Below the pieces are notes generated by a model. It was not told the origin of the DNA and did no database searches. It saw only the letters and a program-made list of their open reading frames with translations. The position numbers were made by a program, and so were the translations under genes. DNA of 63,987 nt, filler included, from Nitrospirota bacterium (lineage in GTDB: Bacteria > UBA2233), in assembly GCA_011620345.1 (NCBI GenBank). It is 5 parts of 5 records of this genome, joined end to end, with 100 filler letters (N's around TTAATTAATTAA, not from the genome) between each part and the next. Parts side by side here need not be neighbours in the genome. Positions count along the whole stretch, not along the records: positions 42,412 to 55,581 come from WOZJ01000062.1; 4 more parts are not named here. The stretch is one strand, 5' to 3'. Position 1 is the first letter of the stretch, and every line of letters begins with the position of its first letter. This document shows, one piece after another, positions 42,412 to 55,357 of the stretch.

Positions 42412-43583
42412 CTTGGGCCTGGCTCCAACGTGATCTTCCCCCCATGCTCCTCGATGATCCGGGCAGACAACGGAAGCCCGAGACCAATCCCTTTCTCTTT
42501 GGTCGTGTAAAAAGGGATGAAGAGCTTTGGAATCTCCTTGGGGTCCACACCAGACCCCGTATCTTGGATATCCACCCGAAGGAACGCCTTCGACCAATGA
42601 ACCCCGCAGGACACCTCTCCGCCGCCCTCGATCGCCTGGAGGGCGTTGAGGACGAGGTTCAAAAACACTTGCTTGAGCTTGTTGCCATCGACACGGAGCA
42701 CTGCGGGCTCTTTCCCGTAGTTCTTAACGAGCGTGACTCCGCGAGATTTCGCCTCGTACGCCGTAAGGATCAGCACCTCTTCGAGGATCTCTTTGATATC
42801 GTGAGGGGCCTCGTGGAGGCCAGACGGCCTCGCGAAATCGAGAAACTGCTCGATAAGCAAGTTAATGCGCTTCACCTCGTTGTTGAGCACGGTGATGTCG
42901 TCCGTTACCTGACAAAATCGGCAAAACTCCGGCGCTTGGCGCTGGATGGCGTAAAGAAGCATGTTGATTACGTTTAAAGGGTTCCGGATCTCGTGCGCAA
43001 GCCCGGCAGATAGCTCGCCTAGGCTCACGAGCCGCTCTTTGTCGGCGATCTCCTTTTGGGCCTGAACCACCTGGCTATGCAACCTGGCGTTCTCGATAGC
43101 CATCGCGGAGTGAAGCGCCGAGAGGTTGGCAAGCTCGAGCTCTTCTTGGCTAAGCGCCTTGGCAAACGACCAGTAGATGTTCATTACACCGATCACGACA
43201 CCCTGTACGCTCAAAGGAACGCTAAGCAGGCTCACGAGCCCCTCCTCTTGGAGAAGCGCCTTGTATACGAGCCTGTCCTCCCTGGAAATGTCCGGAATAA
43301 AGATGGGGGAGTTGGTTTTTACGACCTCTCCCACGAGCGAGCCGGCTACCTCCAGGGGGGGTTTTTTTGTATACCCTTCCGAGCCCAAGTAGTGCGCTTT
43401 GATATAAAGGATTTCTTCATCTTCGTCGAGGAGCAGGATTGACACAATCCTGGCATCCAGAAGGCTCGAAACGACCCGGGTGATGCCCTGGAGCGTATCC
43501 TCCAGGGATCCAGGGTTGGAATACATCGTAACGATCGCCCTGGATGCCTTGAGCAGCTTCGATTCTTCAACTCGTTCTAGCAT
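42412..43583 (-). CDS. Cytoplasmic GAF-domain sensor histidine kinase (NtrB-like H-box), last residues cut by contig end
   Basis: GAF (SLLSVPL...IGVMN), LAHEIRNPL, QVFLNLVLNA, DTGSG, PFYTTK, GIGLGL; ATG 43583 overlaps hesA end; no TM segment. Confidence 0.9.
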
Positions 43584-44302
43584 GCCTGGCAAACACACCC
43601 GGTTCTTTTTTTGAGCTTGATCTTCTTGACTTCCAAAGGCATCACCCGGATTAGCCCTAGCATGCCGTAGTACTCTTTTGCGCCCATCCCCAAGAAAGAG
43701 ACGGCCACGAGCGCTCCCAAGCATCCCATGAGCCCTGCATGGGCCCCGAGCACGCCAAAGCGCGGGTCCCAGGATGGAAAGCTGGGAAACAGGCAAAAAA
43801 GACACGGCGTTCTTGGCGGGTCCAAAAGAACGACCTGCCCCTCGAAGGCGTACATGGCAAGCTCCAAAAGCGGGGTTTGCGTTCGCATGGCAAACCGTCC
43901 AAGCGCTTCTCTGTCCTTGAAATTATGGCGGCAATCGACGACGAGGTCCGGCTTGGGCTGCAAAGCGTCAAGATCGAGGTCTCGAACAAACCCAGAGAGC
44001 GCATGAACGCGCGTCGTTTTACTGAAACGCTGAATCGCTTCTTTGGCAAGCTCTGCCCTTGGCCGCCCGAGGCCGTCTTCGGGCATCAAGATCTGACGGT
44101 TCAAGTCTTCAAGGGTAAGGACCCCTTCGTGCACGAGAGTAAGCTCGCCCACGCCAGCCGCCGCCAGCTCGAGCGCAAGAGGCCCACCTAGCCCCCCCAC
44201 GCCGGCCACAAGCACGCTTGAAGACGCAAGCCTTCTTTGAGCCTCGATGCCAAACCCGGGCAGTGCGATCTGCCTTGCAAACCGCCGGTAGGACTCCTCC
44301 AT
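43577..44302 (-). CDS. hesA: HesA/MoeB/ThiF-family protein
   Basis: RFARQI, GVGGLG, DLNRQIL, PCLFC; inside nif operon. Confidence 0.85.
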   Translation of the reverse strand: MEESYRRFARQIALPGFGIEAQRRLASSSVLVAGVGGLGGPLALELAAAGVGELTLVHEGVLTLEDLNRQILMPEDGLGRPRAELAKEAIQRFSKTTRVHALSGFVRDLDLDALQPKPDLVVDCRHNFKDREALGRFAMRTQTPLLELAMYAFEGQVVLLDPPRTPCLFCLFPSFPSWDPRFGVLGAHAGLMGCLGALVAVSFLGMGAKEYYGMLGLIRVMPLEVKKIKLKKRTGCVCQAC

Positions 44303-44309
44303 GGGTCCC

Positions 44310-44714
44310 CTAAGAGAGCAGCTCCTTTTCGCCCGTCCTTACTGCGTAGGTCTCTTCAAGGGGCAAAACGAACACCCGACCATCGCCCGCGTTACCGGTT
44401 TGATTGACTTCGAGGATCGCTTTGAGAGTATCTTCGATCTTTTCGTCTTCCACGACGATCTCGATGAGCCTTTTTGGGACAAACTGCAAGGGCCGGTGAA
44501 TCTGGTGTTCGAGCGCGTACCTAGCGGGGGTCATGTTCAGCCTGCCAGGCCCCTCAATGGCTTCCATCTCCGGGTCGATCTCGCTCATCACCCCGCCCTG
44601 CTTACCCCTGCCGAGCACCGCATGCAGCGTCATGCCCGTCACGCCGACCCTCTCGAGCGCTTTTTTCGTCTCGGGGACAAGCGCCCTCCGGATGATGGCC
44701 ACAACCTCTTTCAT
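44310..44714 (-). CDS. nifI2: PII-family nitrogenase regulator NifI2
   Basis: MKEVVAIIR, GRGKQ, long T-loop, PKRL, GDGRVFV, RTGE. Confidence 0.87.
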   Translation of the reverse strand: MKEVVAIIRRALVPETKKALERVGVTGMTLHAVLGRGKQGGVMSEIDPEMEAIEGPGRLNMTPARYALEHQIHRPLQFVPKRLIEIVVEDEKIEDTLKAILEVNQTGNAGDGRVFVLPLEETYAVRTGEKELLS

Positions 44715-52987: not shown

Positions 52988-53023
52988 ATAACATGCCTCC
53001 TGTTGTTGTGTGGACAAAAAAGC

Positions 53024-53905
53024 CTAGCTGGCCACCGCCTTGAGCTTTTCTTGCTCTTCGGTCAAGCCAACGATCGATTCGTCGTCGTCCATCAAGCCGA
53101 AGTCCAGCAAGAGCTGCTCCAAATCGTCCATCGCAAGCGGCGTTGGAATCGTAAGCTTGGTGTTGTTCTCGATCTTTTTGGCGAGCTCGCGGTACACGTC
53201 GGCCTGCGGGTGGTTGGGCGAGTACTCGATCACGGTCATGCGCCTCAATTCCGCTTGCTGTACCTGCTTGGCCCTCGGAACAAAGTGAATCATCTGGGTG
53301 TTGAGCTTTTGGGCGAGCGCCTCGATCAGCTCGACCTCCCTGTGGACCTGCCTTTCGTTGCAGATCAGCCCTCCTAGGCGTACGCCTCCCGAGTTGGCAT
53401 ACTTCAAGACTCCCCTGGCGATGTTGTTGGCCGCGTACATGGCCATCATCTCGCCCGAGACCACGATGTAGATCTCTTGGGCCTTGCCCTCGCGAATCGG
53501 CATGGCAAACCCGCCGCAGACGACGTCTCCCAAGACGTCGTACATGACGATGTCAAGGTCTTCGTAGGCGCCGTTCTCCTCCAAGAAGTTAATCGCGGTG
53601 ATCACGCCACGTCCGGCACAGCCTACGCCAGGCTCAGGCCCGCCCGACTCGACGCACTTGATGTCTTGAAACCCGACCCTCAGGACGTCTTCGAGCTCCA
53701 AGTCATCCACCGAGCCCGACTGGGCGGCCAGGCTCATGATCGTCTGCTGCATCTTGGTGTGCAAAATGAGGCGTGTCGAGTCCGCCTTGGGGTCGCACCC
53801 CACGATCATGACCCTTTGTCCCGCCTCGGCCATGGCCACGACGGTGTTCTGCGAGGTGGTGGATTTTCCGATTCCGCCCTTGCCGTAGAATGCAATCTGT
53901 CGCAT
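53024..53905 (-). CDS. nifH: Nitrogenase iron protein
   Basis: [38 protein letters not shown]. Confidence 0.98.
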
Positions 53906-53932
53906 GAGAAACCCTCCTTTTGGGTTTTTAGG

Positions 53933-55357
53933 TTACGAAACGGCCCGGTTGGCTTGCTCTTCAAGCGCCGGGATGCTGATTTTCTCCTTTGCCCAGGCCA
54001 TGAAGGCCTCTTCAATCGGGCCAATTTGACGCACGACTTCGATGCCGGCCTCCAAGAGCGCTTGCTCGGGGGCGGGCCCGATCGCCATCACAAAGAGCGC
54101 CTGAACGCCCTCGAGCGCTTTGAGGGTTCGGCTCATTTTCGTTTGGGCGCCTTCTTCTTCTTGACAGTCCGAACCCGTGGCGCAGTAAAGCTCGACCTTT
54201 CGCGCACCCAATAGCTTGAGCGAACCGTCTTCTTGAACTTCGTACACCAAGAACTCCTTGGCATGGCCGAAGTGCTCGTTGACAAGCCCCATCCCCTTGG
54301 TGGCGACGGCAATCTTGGTACCTGAAAGCGCTTTCCCCACCCGGTAGGCCTCGTAGCTTTTGATAATCTGCTCGCGTTTCATCCGGTCGGTTTCGATGCG
54401 CTGCTCTAAATGGGCATGCATCCGCTCGATCACGCCCACGTCAAAACTCTGCTCGATTGTCTCTTCTTCAAGGCAGGTGCCTTTTTCCTGCGAGGTGTCC
54501 TTGCAGAGCAAACCGGACGCATCCGCCCTGCAAAGCCTGCAGTGGCGCATGAGGTTGACGTTGGCCTCGATCTTGCTTTGGAGCGCCTCGATGGCTTGAG
54601 GGCTTGGCGAAACGACCCCCATCTTGGAAAAGGCGCTCCCGTAGCCGGGCGAGATCGCAACCGGCATGAGGTTCACAAGGAACGCGCCTAAGTTTTTGAG
54701 CTCCTTGGCGAGCTTTGGGACGTGCGCGTCGTTGACGCCCGGAATGACGACCGTGTTGACCTTGACGAGCACGTTTTCTTTGGCCAGCAGCCTCAAGCCC
54801 TCGAGCTGGTTCTCGATGAGCACTGCCGCCGCATCCTTGCCCGTAAGGCGCTTGTGGCCGTGGAACGCCCAGGCGTAGATTTCTTTGCCAATGTCGGGGT
54901 CGAGCGCGTTGATCGTGACCGTCACATGGTCGATGCCCAATTCGAGAATCTCGGGAAGAAACTCTTTGAGCCGAAGCCCGTTGGTCGAGAGGCAAAGCTT
55001 GAGCATTGGGATTGCCTCTTTAATGAGCCTTAATGTCCCAAAGGTTTTTTCTGGGTTGGCCAAAGGATCTCCAGGCCCTGCAATGCCGACGACCGAGAGC
55101 TGCGGAAGGCGCATGGCCACGGACATCACTTTTTTGAGCCCGGCTTCGGGGCTTAACAGCGTGCTTGAAACGCCCGGCCTCGATTCGTTCGCGCAGTCGA
55201 ATTTACGGTTGCAGTAGTTGCACTGGATGTTGCAGGCTGGCGCCACCGGCAAGTGAACCCTTGCGAAGTAGTGCTGAGCCTCGGGGCTGTAGCAAGGGTG
55301 GCTTTCCACCCGCTTATCGATTGGGGTCTTCTTGTATTGGCGGAGGCTCGTGGCCAT
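53933..55357 (-). CDS. nifB: Radical SAM FeMo-co biosynthesis protein NifB with C-terminal NifX-like domain
   Basis: HPC, CNIQCNYC, ESRPG, AGPGD, CRLCRAD, HFGHA. Confidence 0.96.
   Translation of the reverse strand: MATSLRQYKKTPIDKRVESHPCYSPEAQHYFARVHLPVAPACNIQCNYCNRKFDCANESRPGVSSTLLSPEAGLKKVMSVAMRLPQLSVVGIAGPGDPLANPEKTFGTLRLIKEAIPMLKLCLSTNGLRLKEFLPEILELGIDHVTVTINALDPDIGKEIYAWAFHGHKRLTGKDAAAVLIENQLEGLRLLAKENVLVKVNTVVIPGVNDAHVPKLAKELKNLGAFLVNLMPVAISPGYGSAFSKMGVVSPSPQAIEALQSKIEANVNLMRHCRLCRADASGLLCKDTSQEKGTCLEEETIEQSFDVGVIERMHAHLEQRIETDRMKREQIIKSYEAYRVGKALSGTKIAVATKGMGLVNEHFGHAKEFLVYEVQEDGSLKLLGARKVELYCATGSDCQEEEGAQTKMSRTLKALEGVQALFVMAIGPAPEQALLEAGIEVVRQIGPIEEAFMAWAKEKISIPALEEQANRAVS

Follow-up and report, generated by a model that had tools for sequence, protein, structure and literature searches.

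A 63,987-nucleotide stretch of DNA (the window, filler included) from the draft genome of an uncultured bacterium deposited as Nitrospirota (assembly GCA_011620345.1; GTDB lineage UBA2233) carries a 16-gene nif operon in which a Group I nitrogenase and a cyanobacteria-like set of accessory genes share one transcriptional direction with nifI1 and nifI2. We consider it likely, from the sequence, that this is a native and functional molybdenum-nitrogenase operon of a probably anaerobic or microaerophilic bacterium, with switch-off of the enzyme by NifI proposed as its control. The novelty lies in a combination of features that are individually known: NifHDKEN sister to cyanobacteria in an otherwise NifI-free crown, a cyanobacteria-like order of accessory genes, a NifI pair with a long NifI2 T-loop, and a putative sigma-54/NtrC-like circuit. 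The source genome is referred to below as G000, and that of a sister species, its sole congener, as G001.

The window consists of five contigs (C10, C11, C12, C14, and C38) joined by filler at positions 14459-14558, 28423-28522, 42312-42411, and 55582-55681, each join consisting of two 44-base N runs separated by 12 other letters. The nif cluster fills contig C14 (window 42412-55581; 13,170 bp). Since neighborhoods across the joins are not real, the TolC, RND, and carbonic-anhydrase genes beside the cluster are unlinked to the operon. Sixteen open reading frames (ORFs), all on the minus strand, were found where the first-pass annotation had put them, in the order nifB-H-D-K-E-N-X-DUF269-W-T-fdxN-NifX-like-I1-I2-hesA-kinase (Table 1), so that the NifI pair does share an operon with nifW, nifT, DUF269, and hesA. 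The genes are mostly spaced by 3 to 27 bp or overlap by 4 nucleotides (nt). A promoter scan of contig C14 returned no sigma-70-like site, and a terminator scan of the same contig returned 13 sites, none of them intergenic, as opposed to 16.3 in shuffled sequences.

A Group I enzyme with an intact core gene set

Families were named by profile searches against the NCBIfam equivalog cut-offs and the Pfam thresholds. NifB, NifH, NifD, NifK, NifE, and NifN all scored over their equivalog cut-offs. NifD lacks the Group II insertion, which in the Group II reference L094 adds 49 residues behind position 410 of the window's NifD and is seen in no other row of the alignment, and it aligns in one stretch with the 492-residue MoFe alpha chain 10zm_C. 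NifK has an N-terminal extension (PF11844, DUF3364; residues 12 to 59), and its alignments with the NifK of cyanobacteria, proteobacteria, and Frankia begin at residues 2 to 12.

Between G000 and G001, the ratio of nonsynonymous to synonymous substitution rates (dN/dS) was 0.01 to 0.33 for all 15 genes tested, nifD, which is split in G001, having been excluded; decay of the operon was rejected with these values. By family models and substitution rates, the core set for a Group I molybdenum nitrogenase is intact, under selection, and complete, and it is joined by cyanobacteria-like accessories and the NifI pair.

NifHDKEN groups with cyanobacteria

The comparison loci were fetched with NifD and included the best 80 of 593 confirmed loci and 15 clusters from a further search of 401 genomes, 23 of which gave a strong NifD match. 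Among the best 80 of 593, NifD identity peaked at 70 to 72% in cyanobacteria and Chromatiaceae, and NifK, NifE, NifN, NifX, DUF269, and HesA were closest to cyanobacteria, at up to 66, 59, 45, 52, 47, and 47%, respectively. With the 15 clusters added, the top tblastn identities of NifD, NifK, NifE, NifN, NifX, DUF269, and HesA were 72, 66, 59, 48, 52, 47, and 47%, at cyanobacterial or cyanobacteria-like loci. The exception was NifK, for which L105, a locus with nifI1 and nifI2 downstream of a nifX-type gene (the X-I1-I2 layout), was marginally higher at 67%.

Quick trees of NifH, NifD, NifK, NifE, and NifN joined the window to cyanobacteria with a support of 98 in the Shimodaira-Hasegawa-like approximate likelihood-ratio test (SH-aLRT), both with 25 and with 31 rows. 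In a careful NifHDKEN tree of 22 rows, the window was sister to the cyanobacterial clade (ultrafast bootstrap/SH-aLRT, 97/97), and the pair belonged to a crown clade (98/95) that also comprised Frankia, proteobacteria, and two further families. A tree of NifD and NifK only gave a three-way split of the window, cyanobacteria, and proteobacteria, which was resolved by adding NifH, NifE, and NifN. Joining the window to the six X-I1-I2 rows was rejected in the approximately unbiased (AU) test (p = 0.0079), the group having been chosen, like the second one tested below, after the tree had been seen. By sequence, NifHDKEN is of Group I and sister to the cyanobacterial clade; the Group I assignment of the first-pass annotation is upheld by family models, the missing insertion, and tree placement alike.

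Two of the loci deserve a separate remark. In L013, a 12.6-kb contig of a metagenome-assembled genome (MAG) labelled Synechococcaceae, both NifDK and NifHDKEN formed a tight group with Competibacteraceae instead of joining cyanobacteria, so that the contig is either mis-binned or reflects a transfer. A nifD match in an unrelated genome (G358:C9:232060-233481) contains one in-frame TAG.

The NifI pair and the preceding NifX-like gene

The nifI1 and nifI2 genes lie between the NifX-like gene and hesA and overlap by 4 nt, an arrangement that points to translational coupling. The best solved match of NifI1 was chain H of the structure 9p1x (136 bits, with GlnB/GlnK chains at 72 bits or less), and that of NifI2 was chain G of the same structure (86.6 bits, with GlnB/GlnK chains at 68 bits or less). 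By these matches in the Protein Data Bank, the pair is closer to known NifI1/NifI2 than to GlnB/GlnK. The structure is the NifDK-NifI1,2 supercomplex of Methanosarcina acetivorans, in which a heterotrimer of two NifI1 and one NifI2 is reported to cover the NifH docking site (bioRxiv 10.1101/2025.09.09.675011).

Outside this structure, the closest relatives are the NifI proteins of X-I1-I2 clusters, to which NifI1 is 60 to 67% and NifI2 is 42 to 49% identical; the best tblastn identity of the ferredoxin, 45 to 48%, is also to the ferredoxin of clusters of this type. The T-loop of NifI1 is short, and that of NifI2 is long, with 40 residues between the GRGK and PK motifs. A NifI2 T-loop of 40 to 44 residues is found in the window and in six X-I1-I2 rows (L015, L018, L019, L105, L109, and L111), and this long type has a common TPxxYALEH stretch; the loop measures 31 to 32 residues in L020, L021, L092, and L115 and 24 residues in the Group II reference L094. 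In a NifI1+NifI2 tree of 12 rows, the window took the basal position relative to the X-I1-I2 clade (87/88), with a long branch (0.72), and did not nest inside that clade.

Among these few and mutually related rows, the length of the NifI2 T-loop follows the architecture of the enzyme. A long NifI2 T-loop was observed to go with a conserved NifK N-terminal extension in six of seven cases, which represent only one or two independent lineages.

The second NifX-like protein (158 amino acids [aa]) has a basic C-terminal tail and evolves fast, with a dN/dS of 0.33. In a NifX tree it grouped weakly (89/61) with the NifX of its own operon, on a very long branch. Its transfer as one block with the NifI genes was considered; given this weak grouping with the operon's own NifX, the block was not used as evidence.

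Comparison with known nif clusters

The canonical cyanobacterial pattern is given as nifPVZTBSUHDKENXXaW with fdxB, hesA, and hesB (PMC11773926). The window has the order nifE-N-X-DUF269-nifW...hesA in common with cyanobacterial clusters such as L103, L104, L024, L028, and L036, as well as the NifK N-terminal extension and a NifD without the alpha-loop. It differs from them in adding nifT-ferredoxin, the second NifX-like gene, and nifI1-nifI2 between nifW and hesA, and in lacking nifZ and nifV. Its nifB directly precedes nifH, whereas the canonical arrangement has nifB-fdxN-nifS-nifU before nifH and hesB/fdxH after hesA; nifS, nifU, hesB, and fdxH were found neither on contig C14 nor after the kinase gene in G001. 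Further differences are the putative sigma-54 promoter, the NtrC-like two-component pair, and a host without heme-copper oxidase.

The placement of nifI1-nifI2 after nifX, which the first-pass annotation had described as relocated, is not new: the layout nifHDKENXI1I2B has been published for Thermodesulfovibrio (yellowstonii), Dissulfurispira (thermophila), and Desulfuromonas soudanensis (PMC11773926). The X-I1-I2 layout occurs in eight of 98 comparison loci (L015, L018, L019, L092, L105, L109, L111, and L115). Like these Nitrospirota-type clusters, the window has the NifI genes downstream of a NifX-type gene and not between nifH and nifD, and it resembles them in its long NifI2 T-loop with TPxxYALEH, its NifI1, its ferredoxin, its alpha-loop-free NifD, and its NifK extension. 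Unlike them, it has NifHDKEN outside their clade, nifB first instead of last, and five genes between nifX and nifI1. It also differs in having DUF269, nifW, and nifT and no NifA homologue over the cut-off. None of these three genes was detected in the eight X-I1-I2 loci at the tblastn thresholds, the blank for nifW being weak because the divergent NifW query detects few NifW even in cyanobacteria.

The only published pattern that we found also to unite nifI1I2 with nifT, nifW, and a NifX-associated gene is that of the Aquificales Hydrogenobacter thermophilus and Thermocrinis albus, nifI1I2TBWZVSAHDKXaENX (PMC11773926). Its order is entirely different, with NifI at the head and Xa between K and E, and it also includes nifZ, nifV, nifS, and nifA. 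The likeness to Paenibacillus proposed in the first-pass annotation holds for gene order only: the compact cluster nifBHDKENX(orf1)hesAnifV (PMC6429469) shares the backbone nifB-H-D-K-E-N-X-(DUF269-type orf1)-hesA in one compact operon, but it has no nifI1/I2, nifW, nifT, or ferredoxin, ends with nifV, and is regulated by GlnR, and both the sequences and the order ENX-DUF269-nifW...hesA point to cyanobacteria instead. The genes hesA and nifW, which the first-pass annotation held to typify aerobic or facultative diazotrophs, are also reported from an anaerobic Clostridium (PMC6429469). Compared with M. acetivorans, whose enzyme is Group II-like, has the NifD alpha-loop, and lacks the NifK extension, the window encodes a longer NifI2 (134 aa as opposed to 125 in the solved chain); another difference is that nifH and nifD flank the NifI genes of the methanogen.

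In a survey published in 2026, nifI1/I2 are reported to correlate strongly and negatively with nifTQWXZ, and nifI1I2 is inferred to have been lost at the base of the cyanobacteria, of the actinobacteria, and of the gamma- and alphaproteobacteria (PMC12903952). We found no paper that describes the exact gene order of the window; the supplementary tables of the surveys, which our search did not cover, may list it.

Retention or acquisition of the NifI pair

That the NifI pair was retained from the ancestor of crown Group I seems to us about an even proposition, and more likely than an ancient transfer. Vertical descent also predicts a basal, non-nested position of the pair once NifI-free lineages are pruned, and after their removal the NifI1+NifI2 tree agrees with the NifHDKEN tree. 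Multiple losses of NifI are, moreover, already the published model (PMC12903952).

Parsimony, taken by itself, weighs against retention, since a single gain of NifI requires fewer events than three or four losses. A tree in which the 18 NifI-free crown rows were held together without the window was marginally worse (delta log likelihood, 38.5; AU p = 0.040), a value that does not firmly exclude the single-loss topology and in this respect speaks against a gain. The tree sample was that which the scans returned and had no named Aquificales, Paenibacillus, Deferribacteres, or alphaproteobacteria.

The operon could instead be a true mosaic, in which a NifI-free cyanobacteria-like cluster (nifBHDKENX-DUF269-W-T...hesA) anciently gained a nifI1-nifI2 block from a Nitrospirota-type anaerobe, inserted between nifT and hesA, the ferredoxin and NifX-like genes possibly coming along with it. 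This we regard as possible rather than probable. The window is the only NifI-bearing row in a crown clade of 19 rows, all other NifI-bearing rows being outside; its NifI1, NifI2, and ferredoxin have their best identities in X-I1-I2-type clusters, and its NifE, NifN, NifX, DUF269, and HesA have theirs in cyanobacteria. The putative donors have the same long kind of NifI2 T-loop, and the NifX-like gene directly precedes nifI1 as nifX does in them. A transferred pair sits poorly, however, with the basal position of the window outside the donor clade, and the NifX-like protein leans weakly toward the operon's own NifX and not toward donor NifX. The arrangement is also common to both species, with no foreign block in its composition. 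The first-pass annotation had raised a possible transfer of the whole cluster; there is no sign of a recent one, and the cluster occupies the same chromosomal place in G000 and G001.

A proposed NifI switch

Retained or acquired, the pair may act on an enzyme that we picture as follows. NifHDK form a Group I nitrogenase without the NifD alpha-loop and with the NifK N-terminal extension, for which NifB, NifEN, NifX, the NifX-like protein, DUF269, NifW, NifT, the ferredoxin, and HesA would provide cofactor assembly, electron supply, and stabilization, as in cyanobacterial clusters. At low 2-oxoglutarate, a 2:1 heterotrimer of NifI1 and NifI2 would, by family membership, sit on the NifH docking face of NifDK. 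Rising 2-oxoglutarate together with ATP would then cause NifI1,2 to leave, after the model of M. acetivorans, in which these two ligands are reported to release the heterotrimer (bioRxiv 10.1101/2025.09.09.675011). In the same study, the T-loop of NifI2 grips the alpha-loop of NifD, and the alpha-loop is described as a specificity determinant. As a matter of speculation, the NifK N-terminal extension is a candidate contact for NifI in the window's enzyme.

Several points qualify this picture. Since the window's NifD has no alpha-loop, the predicted docking of NifI must differ from the methanogen mode. No homocitrate synthase gene (NifV) scored over the cut-off in the genomes (best, 300.8 as opposed to 462.9 bits). 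No match to DraT (PF07357) was found in G000 or G001, a weak blank because the model was silent in 14 control genomes too. None of the listed sequencing runs with near-identical sequence is of RNA. The putative promoter element ahead of nifB has one mismatch to the sigma-54 consensus, and matches of this quality occur in the window 5 times as opposed to 4.24 expected.

The missing alpha-loop is also what could be said for the view that the P-II pair is no nitrogenase switch here, either having another target (the kinase, glutamine synthetase, or a transporter) or being a tolerated remnant that cannot dock. We hold this to be improbable. Both genes are part of the nif operon, are translationally coupled through their 4-nt overlap, and show purifying selection; methanococci have no alpha-loop and bind NifI in a different way (bioRxiv 10.1101/2025.09.09.675011); and Thermodesulfovibrio TK110, which carries nifHDKENXIIB, has been shown to fix N2 (PMC12501866). 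In L015 and L018, Nitrospirota-labelled MAGs with the same layout, an alpha-loop-free NifD likewise occurs together with a long-T-loop NifI2.

The operon is native to its genome

G000 measures 1.80 Mb in 72 contigs and is 96.8% complete with 0% contamination. G001, the only other genome of the collection in its family, order, class, or phylum, carries all 16 genes at 87 to 99.7% aa identity. Its cluster is spread over two contigs, of 93.5 kb and 32 kb, at the end of the former and the start of the latter, and nifD is cut by the contig ends. More than 80 kb of chromosome are physically continuous with the cluster. The DNA of G001 beyond the cluster matches G000 contigs C62, C19, C46, and C63 at 92 to 95% nt identity. 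In G001, the end of the kinase gene overlaps the start of a gene for an NtrC-like response regulator. In G000, contig C62 opens with this same regulator gene, so that C14 and C62 abut, with a gap of about 55 bp.

Near-identical sequence was present in 20 sequencing runs from 11 studies. In run X4, a contig of 4,370 nt covers kinase-hesA-I2-I1-X'-fdx-T-W-DUF269 and another of 5,586 nt covers nifX-N-E-K-D; shorter contigs of runs X5 and X8 bridge hesA-I2-I1-X', nifI1-X', and nifT-nifW-DUF269, and X6 covers scattered parts. These four runs come from four different studies.

Mis-binning and chimerism, which the first-pass annotation had named as a way in which its reading could fail, are rejected. 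That the contig is an artefact of binning or assembly, taken from another organism or joining two, is extremely improbable: it is only 13.2 kb long and has no housekeeping gene, its GC content is 58.1% as opposed to 55.6 ± 1.6% for the genome (2.5 points over the mean, at the edge of the genome's own range), and its tetranucleotide distance ranks 120 among 128 chunks (94th percentile), but seven other chunks are more deviant, the contigs from other studies bridge its gene junctions, and both the chromosome attached to the sister cluster and the start of C62 tie it to G000.

The surroundings vary between the two species. G001 has an extra gene for a 528-aa amidase (PF01425; L009:12276-13862) between DUF269 and nifW, which is absent from G000. 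In G001, the response regulator gene is followed by a block of roughly 6 kb (L009:1111-6397) that encodes a TRAP-T component, a molybdoenzyme of the xanthine-dehydrogenase family, a 2Fe-2S subunit, XdhC, and a MobA-like transferase. G000 lacks this block at the corresponding place; a stretch 75 to 80% alike is on its contig C36. Upstream of nifB, G001 has a variable stretch (L010:3877-8920) that encodes a radical SAM protein, a YhcG/DUF1016 nuclease, and a PIN protein. No blastn match of at least 300 bp to this stretch was found in G000, the assembly of which breaks off 224 bp upstream of nifB.

Candidate promoter and regulatory circuit

The sigma-54 consensus is TGGCAC-N5-TTGC. Given the window count of similar elements, only position speaks for the element ahead of nifB. 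About 90 to 130 bp further upstream lies a pair of GGTG-N6-CACC palindromes, and a third copy is at 55297-55310, so that all three copies in the window are at the 5' end of nifB. The number expected in the 64-kb window was 0.46, and three copies were reached in 1 of 100 shuffles. The tandem pair occurs once per genome, upstream of nifB, and is identical in G000 and G001.

The response regulator, which has a receiver domain, reached 457 bits with the NtrC model, which is below the cut-off of that model. The best match to NifA (TIGR01817) reached 380 bits as opposed to the cut-off of 528.85, and the matches span only the AAA+ and DNA-binding part. The rpoN gene was found in both genomes. In the circuit that we propose, a single sigma-54 promoter ahead of nifB would drive the 16 tightly packed genes and then the regulator gene; the GAF kinase would phosphorylate the NtrC-like regulator, which probably binds the candidate GGTG-N6-CACC sites and switches the operon on. 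Such a circuit would be free of NifA and self-reinforcing.

The host lineage

UBA2233 (Ca. Cutipiota) is described from two genomes of 1.8 to 1.89 Mb with 55.75 to 56.11% GC (PMC11382960), and the GTDB phylum of G000 consists of two species, which makes the host a barely sampled lineage. The suggestion in the first-pass annotation that the lineage is perhaps not known to fix nitrogen is not supported, as UBA2233 is already listed among the MAGs encoding nitrogenase in a preprint (10.1101/2023.07.16.546273); provided that the phylum label is right, the literature already mentions diazotrophy in this lineage but gives no analysis of it. Relatives of NifN in a larger protein collection were 96, 96, 91, 78, and 67% identical, followed by matches at 46% or less, and a metagenome scan with NifN yielded nothing but the source contig and relatives of no more than 43% identity. 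The relatives at 78% and 67% (P0005 and P0006) show that the nif lineage is wider than the two sequenced species.

No match to heme-copper oxidase was found in G000 or G001, and cytochrome bd is present in both, which suggests that the host is probably an anaerobe or a microaerophile. Each genome has one further, canonical P-II gene separate from the nif operon. In G000, this gene lies directly upstream of glnA as a glnB-glnA pair (L118:4537-6367, on contig C4).

Gene models

NifB is 96% identical in aa sequence to its counterpart in G001, with a dN/dS of 0.22. For nifD, an alternative start at the ATG of codon 11 is possible. The start of nifN is most likely at 48576, giving 454 aa, and database relatives at 91 to 96% identity are equally long. 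For the NifX-like gene, the ATG at 45521 is the most likely start; it follows the ribosome-binding site GGAGGGGGG and gives a protein of 158 aa, not 203. This ATG lies just past the ferredoxin stop, without overlap with the ferredoxin gene. NifW is divergent, scoring 48 and 36 bits on the NCBIfam models, far below the cut-offs (48 as opposed to 115). The HesA-like protein was assigned by the ThiF family model and by position; it is 41 to 47% identical to the ThiF-family gene product at the same position in cyanobacterial clusters. The kinase start was taken from the ORF in G001, and a longer ORF from 43805 also exists. Relative to the complete orthologue in the sister genome, about 19 codons of the kinase gene are missing.

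Table 1. Genes and candidate regulatory elements of the nif operon (window positions unless a contig is named)
Feature	Coordinates	Strand	Evidence and remarks
Tandem GGTG-N6-CACC palindromes, 30 bp apart	55505..55548 (55505-55518, 55535-55548)	-	candidate enhancer sites for an NtrC-like activator
Candidate sigma-54-type promoter, TGGCAT-N5-TTGCT	55403..55417	-	about 45 bp upstream of the nifB ATG
nifB	53933..55357	-	TIGR01290, 525.7 bits (cut-off 343.65); radical SAM and C-terminal NifX-like domain
nifH	53024..53905	-	TIGR01287, 455.2 bits (cut-off 394.35); dN/dS 0.01
nifD	51524..53017	-	TIGR01282, 812.8 bits (cut-off 653.55); Group I type
nifK	49970..51520	-	TIGR01286, 842 bits (cut-off 427.3); dN/dS 0.11
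nifE	48581..49960	-	TIGR01283, 582.1 bits (cut-off 505.1)
nifN	47212..48576	-	TIGR01285, 483.7 bits (cut-off 326.8)
nifX	46838..47215	-	TIGR02663, 137.2 bits (cut-off 112)
DUF269 NifX-associated protein	46374..46841	-	PF03270, 105.2 bits (cut-off 25); TIGR02935, 117.9 bits, just under 132.05
Divergent nifW	46078..46377	-	PF03206, 51 bits (cut-off 23); dN/dS 0.23
nifT	45859..46059	-	TIGR02934, 61.7 bits (cut-off 41)
nif-specific 2x[4Fe-4S] ferredoxin III (fdxN/fdxB type)	45535..45849	-	TIGR02936, 97.8 bits (cut-off 80.55)
Second NifX-like protein	45045..45521	-	PF02579 (Nitro_FeMo-Co) passes; TIGR02663, 78 bits, under 112
nifI1	44711..45028	-	P-II, 105 aa; PF00543, 90.6 bits; dN/dS 0.07
nifI2	44310..44714	-	P-II, 134 aa; PF00543, 85.4 bits; dN/dS 0.27
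hesA-like ThiF/MoeB-family adenylyltransferase	43577..44302	-	PF00899, 150.2 bits
GAF-HisKA-HATPase sensor kinase	42412..43598	-	Pfam GAF_2, HisKA, HATPase_c; 3' end cut by contig end
Sigma-54 response regulator	G000:C62:6-1397		follows the kinase; receiver domain, NtrC-like

Implications

Surveys treat NifI switch-off and the "oxygen-era" accessories (nifW, nifT, and the nifX-associated gene) as nearly exclusive, and both sets occur here. The operon looks like an intermediate form, in which an enzyme from the cyanobacterial side keeps the NifI pair that oxygen-tolerant fixers lack. A joint reading goes further, namely that the lineage preserves the cyanobacterial type of cluster as it was before NifI loss and that the NifI2 T-loop docks on the NifK N-terminal extension; we think it rather unlikely that both parts hold. 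If they did, an anaerobe's operon would already have recruited DUF269, NifW, NifT, and HesA while still using NifI, and the lineage would be related to the source from which nitrogenase genes came to cyanobacteria, by acquisition or by inheritance. There would also be a second, bacterial mode of NifI-nitrogenase recognition, applying to Azotobacter-type enzymes.

The operon strengthens the genomic case for diazotrophy in an almost unstudied phylum, known from two genomes only, and may serve as a calibration point for the assembly history of the cyanobacterial nif cluster. It offers a compact putative sigma-54 circuit without NifA, together with candidate operator sites, and a natural test of NifI control over an enzyme of the Azotobacter type, with the NifK extension and without the alpha-loop. 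Such control would bear on the engineering of ammonium-responsive regulation into transferred nif clusters.

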